This document shows positions 3,251 to 55,476 of a stretch of DNA of 64,000 bases, piece after piece; the first letter of the stretch is position 1, and each line of letters starts with the position of its first letter. The notes under the pieces were generated by a model. The model made no database searches. It had not been told where the DNA came from and saw nothing but the letters and a program-made list of their open reading frames with translations. Source of the stretch: Candidatus Kerfeldbacteria bacterium (lineage in GTDB: Bacteria > Patescibacteriota > Patescibacteriia > SBBC01). The position numbers were made by a program, and so were the translations under genes. The stretch lies in contig JAZDNT010000003.1 in assembly GCA_043799405.1 (NCBI GenBank), positions 15,461-79,460 of the forward strand. Reading direction: 5' to 3'.

Positions 3251-3634
3251 TCAAGCGGTCCGCGTCACCTCGACGGTGACTGGGTACGCTGAAGGCAAAT
3301 GGAGGTTAATGTGCTCATGCTTCTCGACGTTATCCATGAGCTCCCCTGGCAGTAGCTGGCGTGCGCGTGATTCTCCAGCAGACCAGAATGTCCGGATAAC
3401 TTCCTCCGCCGCCTTTGCTGAAATGTCTACTATGACGCTATGATTCTCAGCAGTCGTGAGCGTAAGCGTCGCTGATCCGTGTTTCTCATACATGGGATGC
3501 GCAACATCACCGATGAGAGCCCAAACAGCAACGAGCAACTCGGCCCAGTTATCGGCGGTCTCCTTCCGTGCTTCTCCAATCTCGAGCGAACGGTGTGTGT
3601 GTTCAGACTCTAGCGCTTCCTGCATCGCCTTCAC
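3251..3634 (-). CDS. hypothetical protein (127 aa)
   Basis: Long ORF co-directional with murF and proS. No recognisable motif. Confidence 0.45.
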   Translation of the reverse strand: MKAMQEALESEHTHRSLEIGEARKETADNWAELLVAVWALIGDVAHPMYEKHGSATLTLTTAENHSVIVDISAKAAEEVIRTFWSAGESRARQLLPGELMDNVEKHEHINLHLPSAYPVTVEVTRTA

Positions 3635-3659
3635 CTCCTTCCCTGTTTTGGTACCAAAG

Positions 3660-4943
3660 TCATGGGATAGTAAGCCACGTTGTATCCTGCCGTACGAGGA
3701 GCTCTTCTGCCCGTTCAGGGTCTGCCATAAGCTCCTTGACTGCTTTTTCCATCCGAGCGATCTGTGATCCTTTGATGAGCGCAGTGTCGCCCGGCGTAAA
3801 TCGATCGTGCACTAACTTCGCGGCTGATACGGGATCATCGAACGAGAATATGTGATCTTCGTCCATGCCAGCCTTTCGTGCCTCACTTGCTGCGTGCTTC
3901 ATTGCTTCGCCGACGCCGACGAACACGTCAATGCAGTTTTCAACGACTTTACGGCCGATCTCGCGGTGCGCCGGTTCGGTCGACGCTCCGAGGTCCGCCA
4001 TTTCACCAAGCAGCGCATAGCGCTTCCCTTCGGCTGGGAACGATCTGAGCGTCTCGAGCGCGGCAGTGCACGCGTCAGGCGACGAATTGTATGAGTCGTC
4101 GATGAGCGTCGTGTTCTTCACGCCAGACAACACGCGCATACGGCCCGGAGGCGGCGTATAGCGCGAGAGCGCGGCAACGATGTCAGGAAAGTCCATGTGG
4201 AACGCAATGCCAACAGCAATACCGGCGAGCGCGGCATACGCAGAATGTATTCCAACGACGCCGGGTATGAAGACTGAAACAGTCTCGCGGTTGAACAATA
4301 CCTTGATCATCAATCCGTGCTCGCCGGAGTCGCCCTTCACAACGGCCGCATCGATACAGCGGACGGCAACGCCGCCTGAAAAGCCGAAACTGATGACCGA
4401 TGCAGGCGATACATCAGCGAGCGACCGGACGCGAGGATCATCCCCGTTGAGCACGATCCACCCGTCATGAGCTACCCTCGTTGCGATGAGTGATTTTTCG
4501 GCAAGAACGTTCTCGACCGATCCGAAGTGGTGGAGGTGGGTCGGACCGACGCTTGTGATCACGCCGACGGAAAGCGGAACGATACCGAGGATCGCTTCAA
4601 TGTCGCCAGGCTTATCCGCACCCATCTCAAGAACGAGTACCGGGGGGTAGGGCTTATGAGAAACAAGGTACTGTGCCCCGTGCCAGAGAGAAACGGCAAC
4701 GCGTCTCCATCCCGGAACACCCTTTGCCGTCGGAGCGCCAAGCACGGTAAACGGAACGCCGAATTCATTATTGAAGCTTCCTGCGCTCGACTGAATGTCG
4801 TAGATGTGCGAGAGCACTACCGCAATAGCCTCCTTCGCGCTCGTCTTTCCGTAGGAACCGGTGATACCGACGACGTGCGGGTGGTAGCGCCTGACGACGC
4901 GTCGCGCGAAGAAGGTGAGCAGTGCCTGCGCTATGCGTTTCAT
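3660..4943 (-). CDS. murF: UDP-N-acetylmuramoyl-tripeptide--D-alanyl-D-alanine ligase
   Basis: Mur ligase P-loop GITGSYGKTSAKE plus the NNEFGVP motif typical of MurF. Lies in the dcw-type cluster. Confidence 0.88.
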   Translation of the reverse strand: MKRIAQALLTFFARRVVRRYHPHVVGITGSYGKTSAKEAIAVVLSHIYDIQSSAGSFNNEFGVPFTVLGAPTAKGVPGWRRVAVSLWHGAQYLVSHKPYPPVLVLEMGADKPGDIEAILGIVPLSVGVITSVGPTHLHHFGSVENVLAEKSLIATRVAHDGWIVLNGDDPRVRSLADVSPASVISFGFSGGVAVRCIDAAVVKGDSGEHGLMIKVLFNRETVSVFIPGVVGIHSAYAALAGIAVGIAFHMDFPDIVAALSRYTPPPGRMRVLSGVKNTTLIDDSYNSSPDACTAALETLRSFPAEGKRYALLGEMADLGASTEPAHREIGRKVVENCIDVFVGVGEAMKHAASEARKAGMDEDHIFSFDDPVSAAKLVHDRFTPGDTALIKGSQIARMEKAVKELMADPERAEELLVRQDTTWLTIP

Positions 4944-11684: not shown

Positions 11685-12374
11685 TTACCACGTCCGAACG
11701 ACTTTTCCATTGACGACCCTCAGGTTCGACATCGGGTACTTCGAGTCCCGAACAAACATGTCGTCCGTAGGATCATAGACCCAGACGCGGATCGATGACT
11801 TCAGCTTATCGACGATCGTTACGAGGCTGTACGTGTTGTCCGATGAAAGACGGATGAATTGCGGAACGACGGATCCGCCTTTCGTCTTGACCGCCGTGAG
11901 CTTCACTTCATTGCCGAGGCCCATGGTCATGAACTTGTAGAGCCGTACGGACAAACCCTTCTTTGTTCCAACCGCGACATAGACAGAATTCGTCATGGTC
12001 TCGACTCTGATGTCGAAGTTCATACCCCACTTCGTGGAAGAGCCGAACGGCTTCACGGTCTGCATGCGCTTGCCTACACCGTTATAGACGTAGACCGCAT
12101 CCTTCGACCATGCGTCCTGCGTCCCAAAGATGTAGAGCGAACCAATGTCTCCGAACGTGACCTGCCGCGCCCATATCTTTCCAGTGTATGTTTTCGAGAA
12201 CGGGCGGATCTTCATTGGAATACCGCTTGCCGGCGTGATCGTGAAAACGCCTTTTGAATCTTTGAGAACGGCTACGGTAGGCGCAAGCGTTTCATCAGCA
12301 TGAGCATGGGAAATCCCGATACTGACGCAAAGAACCGCAGAAGCTGCGATGCCGAGAAGAACGTGTTTGAACAT
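11685..12374 (-). CDS. secreted protein; paralogue of the C-terminal domain of the 13040-14989 protein
   Basis: Signal peptide MFKHVLLGIAASAVLCVSIGISHAHA. The body aligns with residues about 450-649 of the neighbouring 649-aa protein (KIRPFSKTYTGKIWARQVTFG vs KVQPFEKSYKGKIWAKRINFG; VYVAVGTKKG vs VYLAVGTRKAG). Confidence 0.7.
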   Translation of the reverse strand: MFKHVLLGIAASAVLCVSIGISHAHADETLAPTVAVLKDSKGVFTITPASGIPMKIRPFSKTYTGKIWARQVTFGDIGSLYIFGTQDAWSKDAVYVYNGVGKRMQTVKPFGSSTKWGMNFDIRVETMTNSVYVAVGTKKGLSVRLYKFMTMGLGNEVKLTAVKTKGGSVVPQFIRLSSDNTYSLVTIVDKLKSSIRVWVYDPTDDMFVRDSKYPMSNLRVVNGKVVRTW

Positions 12375-15196: not shown

Positions 15197-16606
15197 TTAC
15201 TCGTATATTAAAAGAGGCTCTCTAACGGGGTCAATCCCTGTAATATCCCACCCAACGGTCTTCCGGTAACCGATGCGGTCAGGCACATGGTGCCCGGCGA
15301 GCCCGAGCATGCTGCCCGGCACGATCACATACTCGCCGTAACGATCATTTATCTCATCCAAGGCCTTCTGCAATCCATAGTCTTTTGGCCCTGCCCCGCA
15401 CCGCTCCGAGCTTAGCGAGGAGCTGGTGCGGGGTTTCCCGAACAGCGACAGCTGCCGCGACACTGGTGCCAAGTCAAACGTGTACACCGCAAAGAAGCTC
15501 GGAATGCCGGTCATATGCTCCCGCCTAAAAATGTCGAGTGCCGTCCGGAACAGCACGCGCGTGTCCGCGGTTCTGTCAGGCAAGCGCACTGACTCTCCAA
15601 AAAAATCCGTCCGAGGGCTGCGGGTCTCGCGGGACCCGAGACCGAGGACACCTTCGGAAACGGGAGGCGTGGGAAGGGAGAAACCGCCAGCATTAGCGGG
15701 GTTTCTCTCTCCCAGTATTCCGAGCGTCGTCCCGAACCCGCACCACAGCGCGCCCGCTTCCATATCCAAACTCCGCAACCGCCTGCCGGTCTTTTCGCAG
15801 AGCTTTAAAAGTACGGCTTCATGGAACCGTTGGTCGTTCGTCCGCCTCCGCAGCACGTGGCTGTGCCCCACGGACTTCGGCGGACGAGGCGTCTGCACGC
15901 GCGACAACTCGATCGCATTGAGATTTGCCCAGAGCTCGTACCCGCGCATGCCGAACGACTGAATAAGGTTTGCGACGGGGTAGCGCTTGAGCTCCAATAG
16001 ATCCCGGATACCGAGGTCCATGAGTTTCGCTGCGGTCCGGTCCGCAATGCCCCAGGCCTCGGTAAGCTCGCGGCCCGTAAGGTACGCGTCGAGCATATCC
16101 GCAGTCAAAACCACTAATCCGCCCTTCTCACACGTGTCAGCGCCGAACTTCGCGAGCCATCTCGTCGCGGCAATCCCCATAGAACAGGTCAGCCACTCCC
16201 CGACCTCGCCCAAGATCCGCTGCTTGATCCGCCGCCCCAGTTCTGATGCGGCATCAAAATCAGCGACGAACCCGGTCAGGTTCACGAACGCCTCATCAAT
16301 CGAGTACGGCTCGATGTCCTCGGAGTATTCGGCGAGTATCGAAAAGATCTTCTCCGTCGTTGACCGATACTTCGGCGGGTCCACCTCCACCAAGATGACG
16401 TTCGGATCGATGGCGCGCGCATCTTGCACGCGGCAACCGACCTTGATGCCCTCTTTCTTCGCTTCCTTTGACGAAGCAATAATGCAGCCGTTCCGCGTCA
16501 TCGTCGCGCACACACCAAGCGGTTTTCCACGATAGAACGGATTCGCCTGCTGTTCTACCGAAGCGAAGTAACTGTTCATATCTAGGTGGAGAATTATTCT
16601 CTGCAT
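15197..16606 (-). CDS. dinB: Y-family DNA polymerase IV with an internal ~40-aa insertion
   Basis: MQRIILHLDMNSYFASVEQ..., YSIDEAFVNLTG catalytic motif, and HhH thumb. 469 aa, longer than I would expect for DinB. The extra segment is LGILGERNPANAGGFSLPTPPVSEGVLGLGSRETRSPRTDFF in the little-finger region. Confidence 0.88.
   Translation of the reverse strand: MQRIILHLDMNSYFASVEQQANPFYRGKPLGVCATMTRNGCIIASSKEAKKEGIKVGCRVQDARAIDPNVILVEVDPPKYRSTTEKIFSILAEYSEDIEPYSIDEAFVNLTGFVADFDAASELGRRIKQRILGEVGEWLTCSMGIAATRWLAKFGADTCEKGGLVVLTADMLDAYLTGRELTEAWGIADRTAAKLMDLGIRDLLELKRYPVANLIQSFGMRGYELWANLNAIELSRVQTPRPPKSVGHSHVLRRRTNDQRFHEAVLLKLCEKTGRRLRSLDMEAGALWCGFGTTLGILGERNPANAGGFSLPTPPVSEGVLGLGSRETRSPRTDFFGESVRLPDRTADTRVLFRTALDIFRREHMTGIPSFFAVYTFDLAPVSRQLSLFGKPRTSSSLSSERCGAGPKDYGLQKALDEINDRYGEYVIVPGSMLGLAGHHVPDRIGYRKTVGWDITGIDPVREPLLIYE
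15623..15713. repeat. GC-rich palindromic element lying in frame inside dinB
   Basis: GGTCTCG-CGGGACC-CGAGACC (15623-15643) and GGGAAGGGAGAAACCGCC-AGCATTA-GCGGGGTTTCTCTCTCCC (15671-15713). The second part resembles the intergenic repeat at 7161-7199 and 19876-19918. Confidence 0.55.
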
Positions 16607-18526: not shown

Positions 18527-19504
18527 TTACAACCGTATCTCCTTCTCCAACCACGGAATATGCTCGTGCTTCCTGCGCCAGAATACATCCTCCCAGATGT
18601 AATGAACTGCCAGCATGGCGTATTTCCCATAACACCACTTGATGTCCCTGCTGATCTTTTGTACCGGCACCAAACGTTTTCCATAAAACAGGCGCGAGTA
18701 GATCTTCTGCTGCCACGGCGTAATATGATCGAACGTACCGTCGTGATGCAGCGCCTCAAACAGCAGAATACGAGCGGTTTCCGGACCAACGCCGTACAGT
18801 GCCATCAGCGTCTGTTTCGCTGCTTCTTCCGTTGCACTTCGCAACGCAATCTCGTCAACGGTTTTTTCCACAAAATCCCGCGACAGCCGTTTCAGAAACT
18901 TTGCGCGGTAGCCGATCTTCAGTGCTCGCAAATCATCCTCCGATACATGACGCAATCTCTCCGGCAACCATATCGCATGCAACGTCTTACCGCCGAATGC
19001 AACGGTCATCCCGAACTTTTTCAGCAACGCATCGAGCATCTGGCTGCTCCTGCGTACGGTCGCGTTCTGCAACACAAGACCGACAACCAAAAGTTCATAT
19101 AAATTGAACTGGGCGGCGTTCCGCATGCCAGTCCATTTCCTGAACACCGGAAAGAACCGTCGATCTCGCCTCGCCAACGCATTAAACTCATGAAGGTCCT
19201 TGTCCAGCTCGAAACGGTACGCAATTTCATTCCGCACCGGCTCCAGTTCTTTCGCGGCAAGGGGTTTCCGGGAAAACACGGAAACCTGCATACTCGGCTT
19301 TCGCTGCGTTCCCATGTTCACGAAGATCAGGCCGTAGAGCCGTTCCCCCATGCGCAGCGTCTGCCAGTACTTCCCCGGAATCCAATCTTCGAGTTTCAAC
19401 ATATTGAGAAAATGCGACGGCTTATGGAACGTACCGTCAAAATGAAACGGCGGCTTCGGGTACAAGGTGAATGATGTTCGATGTGCTAGTTTTATAATCG
19501 TCAA
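18527..19504 (-). CDS. HhH-GPD superfamily DNA glycosylase (AlkA/3-methyladenine glycosylase II-like)
   Basis: LVVGLVLQNATVRRSSQMLDALLKKFG and the HhH motif LMALYGVGPETARILLF. N-terminal FTLYPKPPFHFDGTF is typical of this family. Apparent TTG start. Confidence 0.78.
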   Translation of the reverse strand: MTIIKLAHRTSFTLYPKPPFHFDGTFHKPSHFLNMLKLEDWIPGKYWQTLRMGERLYGLIFVNMGTQRKPSMQVSVFSRKPLAAKELEPVRNEIAYRFELDKDLHEFNALARRDRRFFPVFRKWTGMRNAAQFNLYELLVVGLVLQNATVRRSSQMLDALLKKFGMTVAFGGKTLHAIWLPERLRHVSEDDLRALKIGYRAKFLKRLSRDFVEKTVDEIALRSATEEAAKQTLMALYGVGPETARILLFEALHHDGTFDHITPWQQKIYSRLFYGKRLVPVQKISRDIKWCYGKYAMLAVHYIWEDVFWRRKHEHIPWLEKEIRL

Positions 19505-19526
19505 AAGTCAAATGTTACGTGTTTTC

Positions 19527-19775
19527 TCATACCCCACTCACCTCTTCCAACGTCCACACCAACGATTCCGGATCGTACACGAGCACAAAACTATTTCCCT
19601 CGTCCGACACGGCAAAGCACCACACGAACCGCTTACCCACGCGTTTCCGGTACACCAGGTTCACGCGCTGCACCTCGTACTTCCTCCCGGCACGCACGAA
19701 CGCGATCGGCCGAACCTGGCTGCCGTTGAAATCCGCGAACACCCGAACGTTTTCGTGCACTTTCTCAGTTTCCAT
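19527..19775 (-). CDS. small conserved-looking protein (82 aa), function unknown, upstream of the glycosylase
   Basis: Start moved to METEKVHENVRVFADFNG; the upstream part of the 143-aa track ORF runs through a repeat element. It lies 22 nt upstream of the glycosylase start and diverges from lexA. Confidence 0.5.
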   Translation of the reverse strand: METEKVHENVRVFADFNGSQVRPIAFVRAGRKYEVQRVNLVYRKRVGKRFVWCFAVSDEGNSFVLVYDPESLVWTLEEVSGV

Positions 19776-19875
19776 AATGTTCTCAACGTATTCCGTTGCG
19801 CCGCAGCGGCGAGGATCAGGGTGGCGGGCTTTGCCCGACGGGACCCTAGCCGAGACGCAAGGCGCGACACCATAG

Positions 19876-19918
19876 TAGGGAAGGAGTGGTATCGGACGAG
19901 GAAACCGCAGGTTGCCTC
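19876..19918 (+). repeat. GC-rich dispersed repeat, copy 2
   Basis: TAGGGAAGGAGTGGTATCGGACGAGGAAACCGCAGGTTGCCTC aligns with 7161-7199. Confidence 0.6.
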
Positions 19919-20036
19919 GCCGAATTTTGACCCGAATAAAACCCGAAGTTATCCACACCGTACCACTCGCCTGCGGCTCGTGTACGGTGCAGGCGCGTTA
20001 TTTCCTTTAAAAAGGGCTTATCTTAGGATACTTGAC

Positions 20037-20052
20037 TTCGGTTTTTCTTCGG
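20037..20052 (+). promoter_or_regulatory. TTCGGTTTTTCTTCGG 16-mer upstream of lexA (candidate operator/promoter element)
   Basis: Exact copy of 20845-20860. Preceded by TTGACT and followed by TATACC. Internally a direct repeat, TTCG-N7-TTCG. Confidence 0.45.
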
Positions 20053-20168
20053 TATACCCTTACAGTATCGCGATAACGGACTGGGGTCAAGAGCCAAAAG
20101 AGCGCGGACGAGGAAACTCCCAAACTCAAGCTCTTCCTCCCCTTCCACCATTCATTAGAGGAGGCACT

Positions 20169-20801
20169 ATGGCGCCAGTACTACCACGTCAGAAGCAAAA
20201 AATCCTTCAGTATCTGAAGGACTACATCGGTTTGCATGATTATGCGCCGACGCTTACCGAGATCGCAAAGGAGTTCAATCTTTCGTCGCTCGCGACAGTA
20301 CATGAACACCTCGGCTTTCTCGAGGATCGCGGGTTTATCCGGCGTATTGCCGGCGAGGACCGCGGTATTAAAATCATAGAACGAAAAGCTGATGAACCCG
20401 AGGGAGACTGGAAACCAAGCGTTTTACTTCCGCTTGTCGGTGTCATAACCGCTGGCAAGCCCATTGAAGCAGTTGAGCGGCCTGATGAAACAATCGCTGT
20501 TCCCGAGGAGATCGTACGGAGGAAGAACGCCTACGTTCTTAAGGTTCGCGGTGATTCCATGATCGAAAGCTTGATCGCTGATGGCGACTACGTCGTTGTC
20601 GAGAAGACGGACTATGCGCGTGACGGGGACATGGTTGTTGCCATGCTCGATGACGGAACTGCGACGCTTAAGAAGATCTTCCGAAAGAAAAACTTTGTCC
20701 GCCTGCAGCCGGCGAACAGAGCATATAGGCCGATCGATGTGCCGAACGTTATTGTACAGGGTAAGGTGCTCGGCGTACTGCGTTCTTATCAGCCGGTGTA
20801 A
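20169..20801 (+). CDS. lexA: LexA repressor
   Basis: Start moved to GGAGGCACT-ATG (MAPVLPRQKQKILQYLKDYIGLHDYAPTLTEIAKEF wHTH). Cleavage-site-like ITAGKP. Ser/Lys dyad context RGDSM ... LKK. Confidence 0.9.
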   Translation: MAPVLPRQKQKILQYLKDYIGLHDYAPTLTEIAKEFNLSSLATVHEHLGFLEDRGFIRRIAGEDRGIKIIERKADEPEGDWKPSVLLPLVGVITAGKPIEAVERPDETIAVPEEIVRRKNAYVLKVRGDSMIESLIADGDYVVVEKTDYARDGDMVVAMLDDGTATLKKIFRKKNFVRLQPANRAYRPIDVPNVIVQGKVLGVLRSYQPV

Positions 20802-26520: not shown

Positions 26521-26643
26521 CCAATAACTCGTCAACTCAGCACCACTTTTTACCTACAAGTACATACCAAATATAAACTATCATTATGACAATCTAAAAA
26601 GCGCTGTCGGGAATACCCCACAATGGCAAAAAGTGGTGCTGGG

Positions 26644-27321
26644 TCAAGACAGGCCGATCGTAGTTCCGACAAACGGCTTTCCGGCTATCACCTTGCGGAG
26701 ATTGGCAAGATTAGACGAGACGACGAAGACGGTGAGCTGGTGTCGCGCAGCATACCTGCTCGCAGCAGGATCGAACGGAGCGTGCATACTCGGCTTCAGC
26801 GGTCGATCGAACACGCGTCGGTACTCCTTCCACGTCATACGGTCGATCAACCGCGCGTGGCGCGACGTATCTGGGTCGGCGGTGTACACCCCTTCGACGT
26901 CGGTCACGTTGATGATCGAGTTCGCTCCGAGCGCACGGGCAAGGACAACGGCGCAGTAGTCAGTCGTCCCGCCCGGCTTCCTCCCTGCCGCGACGATGAT
27001 ATTCCCCGTGAATCGGGTGTGTTCGCTGTACGAGGTCATAACAGGCCGACGGACGCCGAGAGCGATGCGGATCAGTTCGGAGTTTACTACGGTTTGTCGG
27101 ATTCCGATCCAGTGCAGATCCTCATCGCGTCGGGCACCGAGCTTTTTCGCAATACGGACCATGGTGCGCGACTGCGCGCCACCACCACAGGTGATCGCAA
27201 AACGCCTTTTTTGCGAGAGGCGCTTTATCATCGTGGCGAATCTCGAAACGAACCTAACGTCAACATCACGGGGAACTACGACCGAGCCCCCGAGCGAAAT
27301 GACTAACGCTGAATTGTTCAT
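26644..27321 (-). CDS. pyrH: amino-acid-kinase-fold protein, archaeal-type UMP kinase-like
   Basis: LVISLGGSVV..., ITCGGGAQSR, GRKPGGTTDYCAVVLARALGANSIINVTDVEGVYTADP. 225 aa. Confidence 0.72.
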   Translation of the reverse strand: MNNSALVISLGGSVVVPRDVDVRFVSRFATMIKRLSQKRRFAITCGGGAQSRTMVRIAKKLGARRDEDLHWIGIRQTVVNSELIRIALGVRRPVMTSYSEHTRFTGNIIVAAGRKPGGTTDYCAVVLARALGANSIINVTDVEGVYTADPDTSRHARLIDRMTWKEYRRVFDRPLKPSMHAPFDPAASRYAARHQLTVFVVSSNLANLRKVIAGKPFVGTTIGLS

Positions 27322-51563: not shown

Positions 51564-52262
51564 CTACTTTCCCCCGAACCGCCGCTCGCGCCGAGAATAT
51601 TCAGCGAGCGCCTCATCAAAATCTTTCGGAGTAAAGTCTGGCCAGAGCTTTGGCGAAAACACGAACTCGCTGTATTCAGCCTGCCATGCCATGAATCCCG
51701 AAAGCCGCATTTCCCCGCTCGTACGGATAATGAGCTCGGGATCGGGTATATCCGGCTGATACAGGTGTTTCGAGATGAGCGAGGTATCGATACGGTCAGG
51801 ATCCGGTTTCGACCGTACGATCGCACGGATAGCATCGACGAGTTCGGTCCGTCCTCCGTAGTTTAAGAGCACGTTGAGAACGCCCCCCGTATTCTGTCGT
51901 GTGAGATTCATTGCGTCCGCAACGAGATTCTGCAACCTCGTAGACAGCTCATGGATCCTGCCGGTAACGACGAGCCTTACGTTCTTCCGATGGAAATCCG
52001 CGACCTCCTCGCGAAGCACCCACTCAAGAAGGCGCATGAGGTACTGGACCTCGCGCTTCGCTCGCTTCCAGTTCTCGGTCGAAAAAGCCCAGACGCTTAG
52101 GTACTTCACGCCACGGTCGAGCGCCGCGTCGCCGATCCTCTTCAAGGTCTGGTAACCGATGCGATGACCTTCGAGCGCGGGTTTTCCGTGCTTCCGTGCC
52201 CAGCGACGGTTACCATCCATGATGATGGCGACGTGCTTCGGCACGGTATGAACTGATGACAT
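51564..52262 (-). CDS. uppS: undecaprenyl-diphosphate synthase (cis-isoprenyl transferase)
   Basis: Start moved to MSSVHTVPKHVAIIMDGNRRWA. The upstream part of the track ORF is translation across tRNA sequence. Confidence 0.9.
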   Translation of the reverse strand: MSSVHTVPKHVAIIMDGNRRWARKHGKPALEGHRIGYQTLKRIGDAALDRGVKYLSVWAFSTENWKRAKREVQYLMRLLEWVLREEVADFHRKNVRLVVTGRIHELSTRLQNLVADAMNLTRQNTGGVLNVLLNYGGRTELVDAIRAIVRSKPDPDRIDTSLISKHLYQPDIPDPELIIRTSGEMRLSGFMAWQAEYSEFVFSPKLWPDFTPKDFDEALAEYSRRERRFGGK

Positions 52263-52285
52263 ATGGATAGTATACACCTTTCGTT

Positions 52286-52340
52286 TGGTCGGGGTACCGG
52301 GACTCGAACCCGGGACCTCAGTTCCCCCGCACCACAATTG
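52286..52340 (-). pseudogene. tRNA-Pro-like 3' half, copy a (ends in CCA) with GTGGTGCGGGG helper strand
   Basis: Minus strand reads CAATTGTGGTGCGGGGGAACTGAGGTC CCGGG TTCGAGT CCCGG TACCCCG A CCA. Confidence 0.6.
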
Positions 52341-52367
52341 ACTGCTAAATGTCTTACTCACGCTTCC

Positions 52368-52423
52368 TGTCGGGGTACCGGGACTCGAACCCGGGACCTC
52401 AGTTCCCCCGCACCACAATTTTG
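52368..52423 (-). pseudogene. tRNA-Pro-like 3' half, copy b (ends ACA), contiguous with the trailer of inner tRNA-Pro
   Basis: Same 50 nt as copy a. Preceded by ACAAAATTGTGGTGCGGGG, which pairs with the leader at 52496-52514. Confidence 0.6.
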
Positions 52424-52495
52424 TCGGGGATGCGAGATTTGAACTCGCGACCTCTCGGTCCCGAACCGAGCGCGCTACCACTGCGCCAATCCCCG
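52424..52495 (-). tRNA. tRNA-Pro(CGG), complete cloverleaf, no encoded CCA
   Basis: CGGGGAT TG GCGC AGTGGTA GCGC G CTCGG TTCGGGA CCGAG AGGTC GCGAG TTCAAAT CTCGC ATCCCCG A. Confidence 0.85.
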
Positions 52496-52518
52496 ACAAA
52501 ATTGTGGTGCGGGGCGGG

Positions 52519-52576
52519 CCGAACCGTGCGCGCGGACTTTATCCCGCCGTATGGCGGGGAACTGCGCTATACCCCG
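52519..52576 (-). pseudogene. tRNA-Pro-like 5' portion (acceptor, D arm carrying a CCCCGCC-ATAC-GGCGGG hairpin, anticodon stem 5' strand and TTCGG)
   Basis: CGGGGTA TA GCGC AGTT CCCCGCCATACGGCGGG ATAAAGTCC GCGC G CACGG TTCGG, then CCCGCCCCGCACCAC.... The acceptor matches the 3' halves, but the 3' halves lack CCGTG to pair with CACGG. Confidence 0.5.
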
Positions 52577-52667
52577 AAGCAATACGTGGATTGTGAATTT
52601 ACGGCGCCCTGCCAACGGAGTTTATCCCGAGCTACCGCGAGGGACCATGCCCCGATGGTATCTAGTC

Positions 52668-52913
52668 TGGCAGGGGTGCCAGGGCTCGAACCTGGAATAA
52701 CGGTTTTGCCTGCCCGCCGTACGGAGGTATTTTTTAATGTGTACTGTATCAATGTCATTAATTGGCAGGGGCGGAAGGTGTCGCACCCTCATTACCGGTT
52801 TTGGAGACCGGTGTTCTACTGCTGAACTACGCCCCCATCAACTAACGACAGATTGTTTTCTCCGTACTCCGGCAGGCGGGGAGACCGTTGTGATACCGTT
52901 TCACTACACCCCC
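52668..52913 (-). tRNA. interrupted tRNA-Trp(CCA) (outer gene): exons 52881-52913 and 52668-52708 separated by a 172-nt insertion
   Basis: Joined exons give GGGGGTG TA GTGA AACGGTA TCAC A ACGGT CTC|CAAA ACCGT TATT CCAGG TTCGAGC CCTGG CACCCCT G CCA, a canonical cloverleaf. The insertion sits at anticodon position 34/35 (or 35/36 by sliding). Confidence 0.6.
52763..52836 (-). tRNA. tRNA-Trp(CCA) (inner gene) with a non-canonical elbow
   Basis: GGGGGCG TA GTTC AGCAGTA GAAC A CCGGT CTCCAAA ACCGG TAAT GAGGG TGCGACA CCTTC CGCCCCT G CCA. The D loop lacks GG, and the T loop has G where U55 is expected. Confidence 0.75.
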
Positions 52914-53002
52914 ATCAAAACTGGTGCTGGATTGAAAACTATTCCTGCCCGGCGAAGCCGGGTCCGGCTCTGCCGGAAACGACGCTCCCGCGATTGTAGC
53001 TC

Positions 53003-53164
53003 TCATTTCAATTTCGCTTCTTTATGGAGCGTATGTTTCTTGCACCACTTGCAATACTTCTTCAGTTCGATCTTCACCTTGACCTTTTTCTTGTTACGTC
53101 TCGAAAAGTAATTGACGTGCTTGCACACACCGCATGAGAGACCGATAAGATTGTCTTGGGACAT
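53003..53164 (-). CDS. rpmG: 50S ribosomal protein L33 (53 aa, zinc-ribbon type)
   Basis: Own translation: MSQDNLIGLSCGVCKHVNYFSRRNKKKVKVKIELKKYCKWCKKHTLHKEAKLK. Below the ORF-track size cutoff. Confidence 0.85.
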   Translation of the reverse strand: MSQDNLIGLSCGVCKHVNYFSRRNKKKVKVKIELKKYCKWCKKHTLHKEAKLK

Positions 53165-53198
53165 AAGGAATGGTTAATTAGGAATTGTGTTCGTTCAG

Positions 53199-53570
53199 TT
53201 AATTAAGGTGGCGGGCTTTGGCAAGATACTTAATATATGCATTGAGTCCGATCAATAGGCCTTCGTACTCGTGATCAAATGAATTGAATTCTTCTTCAGG
53301 CAGATACCCCAGACCCTCGGCAACTTTTAGATGACTTCTTGTTTCAAACACCTCGCCACGAGATTGGTAGAGAACTCGAATTTTATCGTTAAATGAATGC
53401 CTTCCCTGGCTTTCAGCGATATTCGCGATAATGGCATTAGCCGACCGTCTTAGCTGATCTATCAGACCATATCGTTCAGATGTTGGAAAGCGCTCAGTTA
53501 TCCGATAGACGTTGAGAACGAGCGTATATCCGTTCTTCCAGATATCGAGTTGATAGAATGATTGTGGCAT
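53199..53570 (-). CDS. four-helix-bundle protein of the 23S rRNA intervening-sequence (IVS) protein family
   Basis: MPQSFYQLDIWKNGYTLVLNVYRITERFPTSERYGLIDQLRRSANAIIANIAESQGR... is the typical signature of this family. Confidence 0.8.
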   Translation of the reverse strand: MPQSFYQLDIWKNGYTLVLNVYRITERFPTSERYGLIDQLRRSANAIIANIAESQGRHSFNDKIRVLYQSRGEVFETRSHLKVAEGLGYLPEEEFNSFDHEYEGLLIGLNAYIKYLAKARHLN

Positions 53571-53638
53571 AACTTTTCTTTCTTGCCACCAATCTTTAGT
53601 TTCTTAATTAACTTAATTAACTATTATCTTCCTGCTGA

Positions 53639-53869
53639 AGCCGGTGGTCGGATTTGAACCGACGACCTACTGTTTATCCCGATGTTCTCAAAATCTTGCC
53701 GGTGGAGCCGGAGAGCGGATTCGAACCGCTGACCTGCTGTTTACAAAACAGCTGCTCTACCGCTGAGCTACTCCGGCAAGATTTTGTAAGAACATCGAGG
53801 ATCCCGCGTACTATACCTTATTTATCGGAGCGGGACAAAACAGTTGCTCTACCACTGAGCTACACCGGC
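53639..53869 (-). tRNA. interrupted tRNA-Thr(UGU) (outer gene): exons 53835-53869 and 53639-53675 separated by a 159-nt insertion; no CCA
   Basis: Joined exons give GCCGGTG TA GCTC AGTGGTA GAGC A ACTGT TTTGT|AA ACAGT AGGTC GTCGG TTCAAAT CCGAC CACCGGC T. Confidence 0.6.
53703..53777 (-). tRNA. tRNA-Thr(UGU) (inner gene), CCA encoded
   Basis: GCCGGAG TA GCTC AGCGGTA GAGC A GCTGT TTTGTAA ACAGC AGGTC AGCGG TTCGAAT CCGCT CTCCGGC T CCA. Confidence 0.9.
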
Positions 53870-53906
53870 GTGGCGGACGCGTCCGAACATCGGACAATCC
53901 TCTGCT

Positions 53907-53935
53907 TGTATACCATTTTTCCGGTGCATCTTCAA
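53907..53935 (-). promoter_or_regulatory. candidate promoter for the Thr(UGU) unit (TTGAAG-17-TATACA)
   Basis: On the minus strand, TTGAAG at 53935-53930 and TATACA at 53912-53907, about 35 nt upstream of the outer tRNA 5' end. Confidence 0.4.
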
Positions 53936-53965
53936 CAGTCGCAGAATGATGAGAAGGGTTATTAC

Positions 53966-54273
53966 TGGTGGGCAGGGTAGGATTTCTCACCCCGCACCAC
54001 TTTCTTTCGTGCACTGGTGGGTGGAGTAGGATTCGAACCTACGAAGGCCGGAGGCCACCTGATTTACAGTCAGGTCCGTTTGACCGCTTCGGTATCCACC
54101 CTGGCCTTAGAAATTCTCCATCATGGTTGTGAAAGAAAGTGGTGCGGGGCGGGCCTACGAAGGCCGGAGGTCACCTGATTTATGCCGCCGTTGGCGGCAT
54201 CCCGCCTTCCTTAGATTGCTTGAGGAATTGTGGCGGGACAGTCAGGCCCGTTTGACCGCTTCGGTACCTGCCC
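53966..54273 (-). tRNA. interrupted tRNA-Tyr(GUA)-like (outer gene) in three pieces: 54238-54273, 54154-54181, 53966-53989
   Basis: GGGCAGG TA CCGA AGCGGTCAAA CGGG CCTGA CTGT | 56-nt insertion | AAA TCAGG TGACCTCCGGCCTTC GTAGG | 164-nt insertion containing the inner tRNA-Tyr | TGAGAAAT CCTAC CCTGCCC A CCA. The resulting T loop is non-canonical. Confidence 0.45.
54015..54101 (-). tRNA. tRNA-Tyr(GUA) (inner gene), long variable arm, CCA encoded
   Basis: GGGTGGA TA CCGA AGCGGTCAAA CGGA CCTGA CTGTAAA TCAGG TGGCCTCCGGCCTTC GTAGG TTCGAAT CCTAC TCCACCC A CCA. Confidence 0.88.
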
Positions 54274-54274
54274 A

Positions 54275-54527
54275 TGGAGCCGATGCGCGGATTTGAACCG
54301 CGGACCTACTTGCCCAGCATCCAATGTGATACTGGGCTACTTACCCCCGTATTACGCCCGCGTCAAGTGCGGTCGTACGCGGGGCAAGCATGGAGTTGCG
54401 TCATTCACCCCGCCGCTTCTGGAGCCGATGCGCGGATTTGAACCGCGGACCTACTCCTTACCATGGAGTTGCTCTACCAACTGAGCTACATCGGCAGAAG
54501 CGGCGGGGCCAACTGAGCTACATCGGC
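54275..54527 (-). pseudogene. degenerate outer tRNA-Thr-like gene enclosing inner tRNA-Thr(GGU)
   Basis: 5' piece GCCGATG TA GCTC AGTTGG (54509-54527) and 3' piece AGGTC CGCGG TTCAAAT CCGCG CATCGGC T CCA (54275-54309) are identical to the inner gene. The middle keeps GC A ACTCC ATG, but I cannot reconstruct a D-stem 3' strand or an anticodon-stem 3' strand. Confidence 0.4.
54420..54495 (-). tRNA. tRNA-Thr(GGU) (inner gene), CCA encoded
   Basis: GCCGATG TA GCTC AGTTGGTA GAGC A ACTCC ATGGTAA GGAGT AGGTC CGCGG TTCAAAT CCGCG CATCGGC T CCA. Confidence 0.9.
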
Positions 54528-54552
54528 GAATAGTGTGTCTATTGTATACGTG

Positions 54553-55476
54553 CTACGCCCGTCGATGAACGTTGGTCAACATCGTATCGATCCGAGAGGT
54601 GAATTCGGCGAGTTTTTGGTTTTCCGGATTTACCGATCGGAGCTTTTCGAGCGTTTCGAGCGCCCACTCTCGTTTTCCGGCGACGATGCTCGCCTCGACG
54701 AGCGCGTCGAGGAACTTCGGGTTGTTCGGTTCGAGTTCCACCGTCCGCCTGCTGCTCTCAAACGCCCCGATACTATCACCGAGGGCAAGCTGAACCCTCG
54801 AGAGATCGAGGTAGTGCTGCGCAACGTGGCCGTTGATCACGATCGACTTCTCGAAATCACGGCGTGCTTCATCATATTTCCCTTCTCCTGAAGCGACGAG
54901 TCCGAGCTCCGCGTATAGTTCATCATCCTCTACCTTGAGACGCTGAATGACGAACTGCAGCGTTTCGCGGGCATGTTCATAATCCTTCTGTTCGATGTAT
55001 ATTAATGCGAGCTGTCGGTATGCAGAAACGCTCCGTGGGTCGATGCTGATCGCAGCGATCGTCCGCTGTTCCGCTGCTGAAAGGTCGCCTGCCGTCATTG
55101 AGCTTCTCGCGTCATCGAGGAGCTGTTCTATCTTCTGTACTTTCTCTGCTTTCGCTTCCGGCGTCAGGACTTCTTCCTGCAACGTTCGTGCACGGTATCG
55201 CTTTTCAAGTTCAAGGAGTTTCTGGTACTGTGACCGTAAGAACCTTCCTGCCGACGATGCAACAGGCCGAAGCGCCTTGCCGGTCGTTCTCGTAACATTG
55301 GATAACTTCCTCCGGAAACGTTGTTCAATGAGTTTTGATTTCAGCTCATCGTGCTGCTCTGCAGGAATGCTCTTCGTATCAATGACCGCAAGTTTCGGGA
55401 ACTTACGAACGACAATGACGATAATCATTACAAGCGCACTGACCGCGAGGATGGCAACGATGATATCAATCAACAT
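54553..55476 (-). CDS. membrane-anchored TPR-repeat protein
   Basis: N-terminal TM MLIDIIVAILAVSALVMIIVIVV. C-terminal TPR-like repeats (AYRQLALIYIEQKDYEHARETLQ...). Confidence 0.72.
   Translation of the reverse strand: MLIDIIVAILAVSALVMIIVIVVRKFPKLAVIDTKSIPAEQHDELKSKLIEQRFRRKLSNVTRTTGKALRPVASSAGRFLRSQYQKLLELEKRYRARTLQEEVLTPEAKAEKVQKIEQLLDDARSSMTAGDLSAAEQRTIAAISIDPRSVSAYRQLALIYIEQKDYEHARETLQFVIQRLKVEDDELYAELGLVASGEGKYDEARRDFEKSIVINGHVAQHYLDLSRVQLALGDSIGAFESSRRTVELEPNNPKFLDALVEASIVAGKREWALETLEKLRSVNPENQKLAEFTSRIDTMLTNVHRRA

Follow-up and report, generated by a model that had tools for sequence, protein, structure and literature searches.

The five tRNA genes in a 64,000-nucleotide stretch of a Candidatus Kerfeldbacteria contig (GenBank assembly GCA_043799405.1, contig JAZDNT010000003.1, positions 15,461 to 79,460; this whole stretch is referred to here as the window) are organized as nests, with a complete tRNA gene lying inside the broken remains of at least one older tRNA gene of matching identity. 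The interpretation that we favor, with a probability of about two in three, is that hairpin cassettes carrying a functional cognate tRNA have repeatedly inserted into the loops of resident tRNA genes, leaving the older copies behind as broken layers. The inserted units are small, non-autonomous palindromic (hairpin) DNA elements of a Kerfeldbacteria subclade, with a variable interior that is either empty or holds a complete tRNA gene. The outer genes are best read as relics and not as spliced genes, because three of the five are degenerate, relatives have lost outer halves, and each interrupted tRNA encloses an uninterrupted cognate. Replacement of tRNA genes by cassettes of this kind has not been seen before.

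Both ARAGORN and the Rfam tRNA model (RF00005, 59–74 bits) report five tRNAs in the window and no more, every one of them on the minus strand, in agreement with the positions given in a first-pass annotation made from the sequence alone. Reading of the minus strand together with repeat analysis shows that each of the five has complementary leader and trailer arms and, beyond them, the outer pieces of at least one older tRNA gene of the same identity, as that annotation had claimed. The insertions are 159 nt long in Thr-UGU, 172 nt in Trp, 164 nt in Tyr, 113 nt in Pro and 101 nt in Thr-GGU, and the inner tRNA accounts for 72–87 nt of each; an earlier estimate of 159–172 nt holds for the first three, and the full range is 101–172 nt. 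The arm helices are perfect over 19 bp in Pro (26 bp with the acceptor stem), 19 bp in Tyr and 12–14 bp in Thr-GGU, close to the lengths of 19, 19 and 12 bp first given. The Thr-UGU arm is a long helix with bulges, and the Trp arm pairs over ~10+8 bp rather than the 6+8 bp originally proposed. When the outer pieces are joined, ARAGORN accepts Thr-UGU and Trp as canonical tRNA-Thr(UGU) and tRNA-Trp(CCA) with intact anticodon loops, as predicted, and it does not recognize the joined Tyr, Pro or Thr-GGU pieces as their tRNA; Pro and Thr-GGU had looked partly degenerate from the outset. Three of the five outer genes yield no tRNA under any boundary choice. The nesting described by the first-pass annotation is therefore real, but its picture of two layers is incomplete: it overlooked that the Pro nest has at least three layers, that the outer genes also contain small hairpin insertions with no tRNA, that the arm motif occurs outside the tRNA cluster, and that an insertion within the cluster has its own inverted repeat (see below).

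The two nests with intact outer genes have similar organizations. In Thr-UGU (all coordinates in the tRNA cluster refer to the minus strand), the outer 5′ half (53835–53869) is intact to position 36 and is followed by the 159-nt cassette (53676–53834), which consists of a CCCGC...GCGGG hairpin (53834–53803), the left arm (53802–53778), the inner functional tRNA-Thr(UGU) (53777–53703; ARAGORN, Rfam) and the right arm (53702–53676). The outer 3′ half (53636–53675) is intact from position 37 and ends in TTCA, not TCCA, and the predicted outer exon-exon junction is ...GTTTTGT/AAACAGT.... In Trp, the outer 5′ half (52881–52913) is intact to position 34 and the 3′ half (52668–52708) from position 35, with a predicted exon-exon junction of ...GGTCTC/CAAAACCG...; the 172-nt cassette between them (52709–52880) contains the left arm CCCGCCTGCCGGAGTACGGAG (52880–52860), the inner tRNA-Trp(CCA) (52836–52763; ARAGORN, Rfam) and the right arm CCTCCGTACGGCGGGCAGG (52727–52709). 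Both nests are predicted to fold as an outer cloverleaf, an extended anticodon stem, the arm helix and an inner cloverleaf, and the whole nests are more stable than their shuffled counterparts (z = −8.7 for Thr-UGU and −5.7 for Trp). The outer genes are not recovered by running ARAGORN in intron mode on the region.

We note two further features of these nests. The inner tRNA-Trp has an unusual D loop (AGCAGTA) and T loop (TGCGACA), giving A18/G55 in place of the near-universal G18/U55, and the outer Trp is canonical at these positions. The substitution may be a covarying tertiary pair or an early sign of decay, and such a coordinated change fits function as well as decay. Second, there is a sigma-70-like promoter match across the 5′ junction of Thr-UGU (53810–53838; TTGTCC, 17 nt, TATAGT) in which the −35 hexamer is made by the insertion. 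It is not significant, as the match counts in a promoter and terminator scan of the region equal the shuffled expectation, and may be taken at most as a hint that cassettes bring or create promoters.

The outer genes of the other three nests are more complex. In Thr-GGU, a 19-nt 5′ relic fragment (54509–54527), identical to the start of the inner tRNA, precedes a cassette (54408–54508) that sits in the D loop of the outer gene and is composed of the left arm CCCCGCCGCTTC (54508–54497), the inner functional tRNA-Thr(GGU) (54495–54420; ARAGORN, Rfam) and the right arm GAAGCGGCGGGG (54419–54408). The remainder of the relic (54275–54407) contains a middle fragment with a damaged D arm (54407–54389), two tRNA-free hairpin insertions (54388–54345 and 54339–54311) separated by a 5-nt exon scrap (54344–54340), and a 3′ fragment (54310–54275) that matches the inner tRNA at 36/36 positions; the anticodon arm is partly lost. 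The outer Tyr gene is in three pieces with insertions in its anticodon and T loops, as first described. Its 5′ and middle part (54154–54273) comprises a 5′ piece (54273–54238), a 56-nt double hairpin without a tRNA inserted in the anticodon loop at junction 35/36 (54237–54182) and a middle piece (54181–54154). The Tyr cassette (53990–54153) is at T-loop position 53/54 and contains CCCG plus the left arm CCCCGCACCACTTTCTTTC (54153–54131), a spacer, the inner functional tRNA-Tyr(GUA) (54101–54015; ARAGORN, Rfam), a second spacer and the right arm GAAAGAAAGTGGTGCGGGG (54008–53990). The outer 3′ piece (53966–53989) has an aberrant 8-nt T loop, TGAGAAAT.

The Pro nest is the most elaborate. Relics on its 5′ side (52519–52654), which have homology with the syntenic loci of two relatives (L123 and L135, described below), include an outermost 10-nt 5′ scrap, cggggcatgg (52654–52645), and the 5′ part of a middle shell (52576–52560 and 52542–52519) interrupted in its D loop by a 17-nt hairpin, CCCCGCCATACGGCGGG (52559–52543). 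The cassette (52406–52518) occupies anticodon-loop position 36/37 and contains CCCG plus the left arm CCCCGCACCACAATTTTGT (52518–52496), the inner functional tRNA-Pro(CGG) (52495–52424; ARAGORN, Rfam) and the right arm ACAAAATTGTGGTGCGGGG (52424–52406), with the arms stacking directly on the acceptor stem. The relic 3′ halves (52286–52405) comprise a first copy (52405–52370), a trailer spacer (52369–52339) and an older right arm, ATTGTGGTGCGGGG (52338–52325), both homologous to L123, L121 and L135, and a second copy (52324–52289) followed by CCA. A 52-nt perfect direct repeat (52288–52339 and 52369–52420) takes in the last part of the right arm together with the 3′ half, its two units being 100% identical, and the anticodon stem of the outer gene is broken.

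The insertions share their ends with one another and with insertions outside of the tRNA genes. The termini have the form CC[C/T]G-CCCCGCACC…GGTGCGGGG or the variant (T)CCCGCC…GGCGGG(A), with the outer ~11 nt conserved. The first bases of an insertion are (T/C)CCCGC and the last are GCGGG(A/G). The end type CC[C/T]G-CCCCGCACCA…TGGTGCGGGG is found with the Pro and Tyr cargo in the window and in L121, L123 and L135, and its right arm recurs next to Trp relics in L128; a second end type, CCCGCCTGCC…GGCGGGCAGG, is found with Trp in the window and with Thr-UGU and Tyr in L122 (Tyr ending in GGCGGGAAGG). At least five copies with CCCCGCACC-type ends are present in the 64 kb, together with variants, and a search with CCCCGCACCAC allowing no more than one mismatch gives 10 matches where 0.98 are expected. 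In an alignment of the arms of nine element members, 97% of cells are paired and 11 of the 19 pairs are altered on both sides. The covariation score is 0.509, a value that none of 500 shuffles attains (0.168 in shuffles), and slid registers are only 45–56% paired. The outer 11 nt are conserved in sequence, and the inner eight positions are free to vary yet remain complementary. Less specific searches are not informative: CCGC...GCGG hairpins are modestly enriched window-wide (12 versus 1–7 in shuffles) with most matches unrelated, and a scan of a genome collection with CCCGCCCCGCACCAC is too generic in GC-rich genomes, with just one of 120 loci (an Actinomycetota tRNA-Ala) having a tRNA within 400 nt.

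Two members of the family in the window lie outside tRNA genes and carry no tRNA. One is in the dinB (Pol IV) gene (15197–16606, minus strand), which contains two in-frame insertions, both absent from its eight closest orthologs in an alignment. The shorter of these is an empty element of 45 nt (15 residues; 15389–15433, plus strand), CCCTG-CCCCGCACCGCTCC...GGAGCTGGTGCGGGG, which has the same termini as the tRNA cassettes and is unique to this genome. The empty site deduced from the eight orthologs (gtcttttgg-element-tttcccgaac) indicates that there was no target duplication. The longer insertion (38 residues, 114 nt, at ~15599–15712) is built of other small GC-rich hairpins. Both lengths are multiples of three and the frame is open throughout, which argues that the insertions are translated and not removed from the RNA. 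The second tRNA-free member is intergenic (26535–26644, minus strand), beginning immediately after the stop codon of an amino-acid-kinase-family gene, upstream of rplJ. Its arms (ACCCAGCACCACTTTTTGCC / GGTAAAAAGTGGTGCTGAGT) flank a 70-nt AT-rich, non-tRNA interior with promoter-like hexamers, and the element has no Rfam match.

An insertion of a different type lies within the tRNA cluster between tRNA-Thr(UGU) and rpmG (L33). It spans 53189–53621 and contains a gene (53570–53199) for a protein of family PF05635 (23S_rRNA_IVP, here IVP), bounded by an AT-rich inverted repeat (53621–53603 / 53207–53189; TTAATTAAGTTAATTAAG / CTTAATTAACTGAAC). L123 and L128 share this insertion, and L121, L137 and L140 lack it. 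PF05635 is homologous to Avd, the accessory protein of diversity-generating retroelements (PMC10053308). This connection is a lead only, as no reverse transcriptase was found, and a retroelement route through the Avd-like IVP protein was dropped on the same grounds.

Nested tRNAs are also present in related genomes. The L33 and UppS proteins assign the window to the Patescibacteria, and its UppS and DinB have 100% matches among the proteins of a Candidatus Kerfeldbacteria genome. Exact look-ups of the window IVP and L33 proteins gave no match; syntenic loci were recovered using L33 and UppS, together with one DNA-pattern match (L135), which was the single contig found in a metagenome scan with the Pro arm/shell junction. 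The gene order (S2, EF-Ts, a TPR protein, tRNA-Thr/Tyr/Thr, the IVP insertion where present, L33, tRNA-Trp/Pro, UppS and MgsA) is conserved. One nested locus (L123–L127) was recovered from five independent sequencing runs, whose contigs agree at every base over 2 kb, and four NCBI metagenome-assembled genomes (MAGs; L121, L137, L139 and L141), JGI contig L135 and further Logan contigs, including L122 and L128, also have nests. The nesting is thus not an artefact of assembly, a concern raised at the outset. Rfam identifies only tRNAs in nine relatives' loci. A census includes ~24 nested loci from nine lineages, and in every case there is exactly one uninterrupted cognate inside the interrupted tRNA. 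Hairpins lacking cargo are found only in tRNA copies that already have an uninterrupted backup.

The nested arrangement is the derived state. The L140 locus matches the window in gene order and is similar in GC content, its UppS is 67% identical, and its five plain tRNAs are in a gap of 403 nt compared with ~980 nt in the window; more distant AT-rich Patescibacteria also have plain tRNAs. Together these indicate that nesting arose within the Kerfeldbacteria. The leader-trailer duplex has z values down to −7 in the nested clade and near 0 for plain tRNAs at the outgroup syntenic clusters, the nested Pro of L141 being the only tRNA in an outgroup locus with arms. L141 is distant (57% UppS identity), and its tRNA-Pro is precisely nested at junction 34/35 at a different genomic place (3420–3720), with two additional D-arm hairpins in the shell. 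A stand-alone GIY-YIG gene (87 aa, 3841–4104) 186 nt downstream of this nest has no counterpart near other nests and was set aside as incidental.

Comparison of the junctions shows that the elements insert precisely. They are always in loops of the outer cloverleaf (31/32, 34/35, 35/36, 36/37, 37/38, 38/39, the D loop, 53/54 and 55/56), and where the outer gene is complete the junctions are exact with zero bases lost or duplicated. There is neither target duplication nor loss of target bases, and in tRNA genes the targets are D, anticodon or T loops. Joining restores a canonical tRNA in window Thr-UGU, window Trp and L137 Thr-UGU, and in L141 Pro once three insertions are removed. Three layers are present in L121 Pro, L122 Tyr, L139 Thr-UGU and L135 Pro, and the process has evidently been repeated, with outer copies decaying, gaining hairpins, and undergoing gene conversion or deletion.

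There are several informative instances of this decay. The first-pass annotation had held that outer halves decaying freely in relatives would mark them as inert relics, and in the relatives the halves do decay, lose pieces or vanish. One example is Thr-UGU in L123, which has lost the 3′ part of the insertion and the entire 3′ outer half. In L121 the Thr-UGU gene is uninterrupted, and only a possible 7-nt scrap of a shell (ggcttca) is present downstream. In a further example, the Trp shells of L122 and L137 have shrunk to 12–38 nt plus 21 nt, and many shells in relatives have extra hairpins. The Tyr alleles have changed places, with the outer type of the window (GGGCAGG...) being the inner gene in L123, where a 3′ relic of the window inner type (…TCCACCC) lies outside it. 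Other observations point to sequence exchange between layers: the broken Thr-GGU shell fragments in the window match the inner gene at 19/19 and 36/36 positions, the 52-nt Pro repeat is a further instance, and in L135 there is a 45-nt repeat of the 3′ part of the inner Pro gene, with shell halves derived from different allele types. The layers are partly homogenized by gene conversion from the inner copy.

The cassettes are also exchanged between lineages. In DNA comparisons of the window with L123, the EF-Ts, UppS, TPR and L33 genes are 69–78% identical, third codon positions of L33 are 56% identical, the IVP gene is 83% identical, and four of the inner tRNAs are 77–87% identical. The Thr-UGU cassette (5′ part plus inner tRNA) matches at 130/132 positions (98.5%), including 55/57 in its non-tRNA part. 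The 5′ half of the Thr-UGU shell matches at 32/35 positions (three changes in 35 nt, compared with two in the 132 nt of the cassette), and the 60 nt upstream of the shell are 67% identical. The closest relative also differs from one tRNA to the next. The window inner Tyr matches L137 at 85/87 positions and L123 at 71/87, and the window inner Thr-UGU matches L123 at 75/75 and L137 at 64/75, such that the cassette genealogies are incongruent with those of the genomes. The suggestion in the first-pass annotation that these are footprints of a module that carries a tRNA and targets the cognate gene is thus supported by the tRNA-free copies in dinB and in the intergenic region, by exchange between lineages and by the decay of the shells.

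A plausible scenario is that insertion into a single-copy tRNA gene would inactivate it, and that a lineage would survive only if the cargo was a cognate tRNA. Inner and outer identities would then always match, because only cognate-cargo insertions survive, and the presence of an uninterrupted cognate in every nest is what is expected from selection if any insertion inactivates the gene. We propose that the cluster would be transcribed as one unit, with the arms pairing into a long helix that isolates the inner pre-tRNA; a double-strand RNase such as RNase III would cut the arm helix, RNase P and 3′ trimming would release the functional tRNA, and the outer halves would be waste. The earlier idea of fragmentation without ligation, as for intervening sequences (IVSs) in rRNA, is probably correct for the fate of the transcript, with the qualification that the outer halves would be waste rather than parts of a working fragmented tRNA. 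The elements could be mobilized by an enzyme that is encoded elsewhere, acts in trans and does not duplicate the target, being either of the single-stranded DNA/HUH type or of the recombinase type, or could alternatively enter by recombination following DNA uptake. Targeting might depend on the loop structure, on homology with the cargo, or on recombination through the shell halves after DNA uptake.

Several other origins for the elements were considered and dropped. Integron attC-type sites and a P-nucleotide-like hairpin opening have no support, IS200/IS605-type ends are not indicated as a constant flanking tetranucleotide is absent, and conservative site-specific recombination of minicircles is not favored because the junctions do not have a shared core. 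The left arm CCCCGC-A-CCA looks like the 3′ end of a tRNA, but this likeness is not general.

A number of observations fit less comfortably with repeated insertion of tRNA-carrying cassettes. First, no cassette with a non-cognate tRNA was seen, even inside dead shells; always-cognate cargo may exceed what selection alone would give, and could point to homology-dependent targeting. Second, the window and L137 have the same Thr-UGU insertion at the same site, and their outer tRNAs are both intact while differing by about five double compensatory stem changes. Intact but compensatorily diverged shells are more readily explained by selection on the shells or by site-specific homing of one cassette to distinct alleles; recombination of whole nest alleles would also explain them. 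Third, the Thr-UGU arms differ from those of L137 at just 4 of 52 nt, including one compensatory pair, and this conservation is beyond the need of a mere processing helix. Fourth, repeated insertion does not by itself account for the capture of tRNA cargo. Finally, Pfam analysis of ~40 open reading frames (ORFs) in the window identified no reverse transcriptase, recombinase, transposase, RNase III or RNA ligase, and no transposase or autonomous relative sharing the element ends was found in the window or in ~130 kb of relatives' loci.

Some of these observations would be accommodated if the insertions are a new class of protein-dependent bacterial tRNA introns, in which an endonuclease cuts both strands at the base of the arm helix, an RtcB-like ligase joins the halves, and the excised piece is a second tRNA; there would then be two redundant copies, either of which may later decay. 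The outer tRNAs of window Thr-UGU, window Trp and L137 Thr-UGU are perfect cloverleafs after exact removal of the insertions, and the precursors of both window nests fold as nested cloverleafs with the low z values given above. The compensatory changes between the outer Thr-UGU genes of the window and L137 are similar in number to those of the functional inner tRNAs, the arms are conserved and covarying, and it is the inner Trp that has the unusual elbow and the outer Trp that is canonical. However, none of the ~24 nested loci provides a tRNA that depends on removal of an insertion, as an uninterrupted cognate is inside each of them, three of the five outer genes in the window yield no tRNA, and relatives have deleted outer halves. 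The same family of elements occurs in dinB, whose two insertions each have a length divisible by three and leave the frame open, and horizontal exchange of cassettes is another explanation for intact shells of differing sequence.

The insertions also do not belong to the group I, group II or bulge-helix-bulge (BHB) classes of intron, as the first-pass annotation had concluded. The insertions, at 101–172 nt, are below the ~200 nt or more of intron-specific structure of a group I intron; there is no group I core among the Rfam matches in the window at the gathering threshold, nor at E≤10 over 52150–54650, where the five tRNAs are the only significant matches, and a permissive Rfam search of the region reports no ribozyme or intron family. 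Group II signatures are likewise lacking. The BHB motif of archaeal and eukaryal introns has a 4-bp helix with a 3-nt bulge at either end, the two bulges being on opposite strands. In the predicted structures of Thr-UGU and Trp the junctions are instead directly opposed at the base of one continuous helix beside an asymmetric internal loop. In Thr-UGU the central helix would have to form between four exon bases, TTTT, and CGGG of the insertion, which cannot pair. No EndA-type endonuclease or RtcB-type ligase was matched among the scanned ORFs of the 64-kb window. We therefore regard spliced introns as an unlikely account of the nests. Excision and ligation, which had been put forward as a general explanation, fails for the three dead outer genes and is not needed where an uninterrupted cognate is always inside; for the intact outer tRNAs (window Thr-UGU and Trp, and L137 Thr-UGU) it is conceivable, if doubtful, that they are expressed by a cut at the base of the arm helix and ligation to give two tRNAs per transcript.

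A further possibility is that nests formed in place, by duplication of a tRNA gene into itself or by tandem triplication and deletions, with gene conversion and later evolution of the arms. The matching of inner and outer identities would then be trivially explained, and the complete identity of the Thr-GGU shell fragments to the inner tRNA, the 52-nt perfect Pro repeat and the 45-nt inner 3′ repeat in L135 are all as this would predict. We consider it improbable. The break points of the outer halves are exactly complementary at many loop positions, which is not expected of tandem copies with random deletions, and the inner and outer genes of Thr-UGU, Trp and Tyr differ by compensatory stem changes, indicating that the copies diverged as separate functional genes. 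Moreover, the conserved arm termini are common to different tRNA identities, to different genomes, and to the dinB and intergenic elements, and cassette similarity is incongruent with genome divergence. The latter goes part of the way toward showing one cassette, arms and tRNA together, in unrelated lineages, which would count against formation in place. The weakest of the alternatives, that these are the footprints of mostly deleted phages, integrative and conjugative elements or plasmids that brought a replacement tRNA segment, recalls that tRNA loops are classic integrase targets, that integrating elements carry sequences that restore the gene, and that direct repeats of tRNA 3′ parts exist here (the Pro repeat and a 17-nt Trp repeat in L130), yet is very improbable given that the insertions are only 101–172 nt and bounded by inverted arms rather than att-type direct repeats, that 5′ fragments upstream of complete genes are not a product of integrase-mediated integration, that neither the window nor the relatives' loci contain an integrase gene, and that matches to arm pairs in viral contigs are at chance level with none enclosing a tRNA. 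In those viral-contig scans, arm pairs with 10–141 nt spacing gave 38–55 matches each, approximately as expected by chance, and the extended hairpins of the matches look unrelated; a phage vector is without evidence.

Insertion of tRNA-carrying hairpin cassettes has its closest architectural counterpart in the rRNA IVSs. These are selfish, horizontally spread, hairpin-armed insertions at the tips of stem-loops that are either empty or contain a PF05635 ORF, and which are excised by RNase III without ligation (PMC4990558). The tRNA cassettes resemble those in the 23S and 16S genes of Salmonella, Leptospira, Campylobacter and Coxiella in inserting at the tip of a stem-loop in a structured-RNA gene, in having complementary ends that form a long, extended helix with or without cargo, and in being sporadically and horizontally distributed and viewed as selfish (PMC4990558, PMC11270868), with no ligation expected. 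The PF05635 ORF is often the cargo of IVSs, and in the window the IVP gene sits in the tRNA cluster with inverted repeats of its own. The cassettes differ in that the host RNA is a tRNA, which is useless as fragments, in that the cargo is a cognate tRNA that takes over its function, and in the nested layers. A tRNA would not be expected to work once cut in its anticodon or T loop, so the IVS trait of a host RNA that works as fragments probably does not extend to tRNA. We also note that short insertions, as yet uncharacterised, are numerous in rRNA genes of the candidate phyla radiation (CPR), at either the top or the base of stem-loops (PMC11270868).

[quoted passage not shown] The similarities are their small size, terminal inverted repeats with conserved ends, lack of transposase coding, presence in several copies, and in-frame insertion in a protein gene as in dinB. 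They differ in the absence of target-site duplications, as seen both at the dinB empty site and in the exact rejoining of the tRNA junctions, in that none of the loci covered was found to contain a parent insertion sequence or transposase, and in interiors that range from 11 nt to a whole tRNA gene. The MITE literature does not describe insertion in tRNA loops with tRNA cargo, and a MITE review makes no mention of tRNA. Like the cassettes, the integrative elements that target tRNAs, among them phages, integrative and conjugative elements, and archaeal viruses and plasmids, disrupt the gene and bring sequence that maintains its function, with partial tRNA repeats marking past events; they are, however, kilobases in length, have an integrase gene of their own, exchange just the 3′ part of the tRNA gene and leave direct repeats, whereas here there are 100–170-nt units with inverted arms, a whole tRNA and both 5′ and 3′ relics, and the window contains neither an integrase gene nor att-type direct repeats of a tRNA 3′ end.

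Comparisons with known tRNA introns emphasize the differences. The tRNA introns described for Patescibacteria are solely of group I and are in the anticodon loop, including non-canonical positions (PMC13011429). The nests are thus in the same phylum as these and, as in the cyanobacterial examples, at anticodon-loop sites, but do not have a group I core, are too short, and contain a hairpin and a tRNA. [quoted passage not shown] The portions of such accounts that bear on BHB introns (including their transposition in Thermoproteales) and on split and tri-split tRNAs describe multiple insertions in the D, anticodon and T regions, non-canonical positions, and introns shared between tRNAs, all of which are reminiscent of the nests. 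The differences are that the nests are in a bacterium, lack a BHB, contain a full tRNA inside the insertion and have outer genes that are mostly dead. No account of a bacterial tRNA lying within a cognate tRNA, or of an intron-encoded tRNA in bacteria, was found in full-text literature searches.

Four additional observations were made in the window and its relatives. In L130, an AT-rich distant relative that is otherwise plain, a 17-nt repeat of the tRNA-Trp 3′ end (gattccttccgcccccg) lies ~100 nt downstream of the gene (11782–11970) and may be the footprint of an integration or of an eroded nest. L135 is the closest relative of the window, and the region upstream of its tRNA-Pro (1–840) is rearranged, with several decayed tRNA-Trp 3′ ends (…cccctgcca) and a membrane-protein ORF replacing rpmG and the Trp nest; ARAGORN finds no intact tRNA-Trp in this 1.7-kb contig. 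GC-rich non-coding stretches are located between uppS and a methyltransferase gene in L137 (6697–7131, ~430 nt) and L139 (2219–3016, ~800 nt). They have no Rfam match at the gathering threshold, are absent at that place in the window, and may be either an unrecognized structured RNA or a pile of insertions. Lastly, a 444-aa ORF in the window (19467–20801, plus strand) has LexA DNA-binding and S24 peptidase domains from residue 239 onward, reflecting either a long N-terminal extension or an over-extended GTG start.

The nests illustrate how an essential RNA gene present in a single copy can be invaded and replaced: destroying a tRNA gene is affordable for a miniature selfish cassette that supplies a functional copy of that tRNA. 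Hairpins with arbitrary cargo are inserted precisely and with no duplication, which points to a DNA-insertion activity that could merit a search. If the outer genes were instead spliced, this would be the first protein-dependent tRNA splicing in Bacteria, with introns that are mobile and tRNA-carrying, and would provide a natural substrate for bacterial RNA ligases such as RtcB. Annotators of Patescibacteria should be aware that a tRNA half, or a tRNA that seems 'missing' or 'extra', may reflect layered relics of this type. Invasion by cognate-carrying cassettes would explain the horizontal movement of tRNA alleles between streamlined CPR genomes, and it relates the long-puzzling rRNA intervening sequences, the short insertions in CPR rRNAs, and the palindromic insertions found in-frame in proteins to a single kind of hairpin element that seeks out loops.

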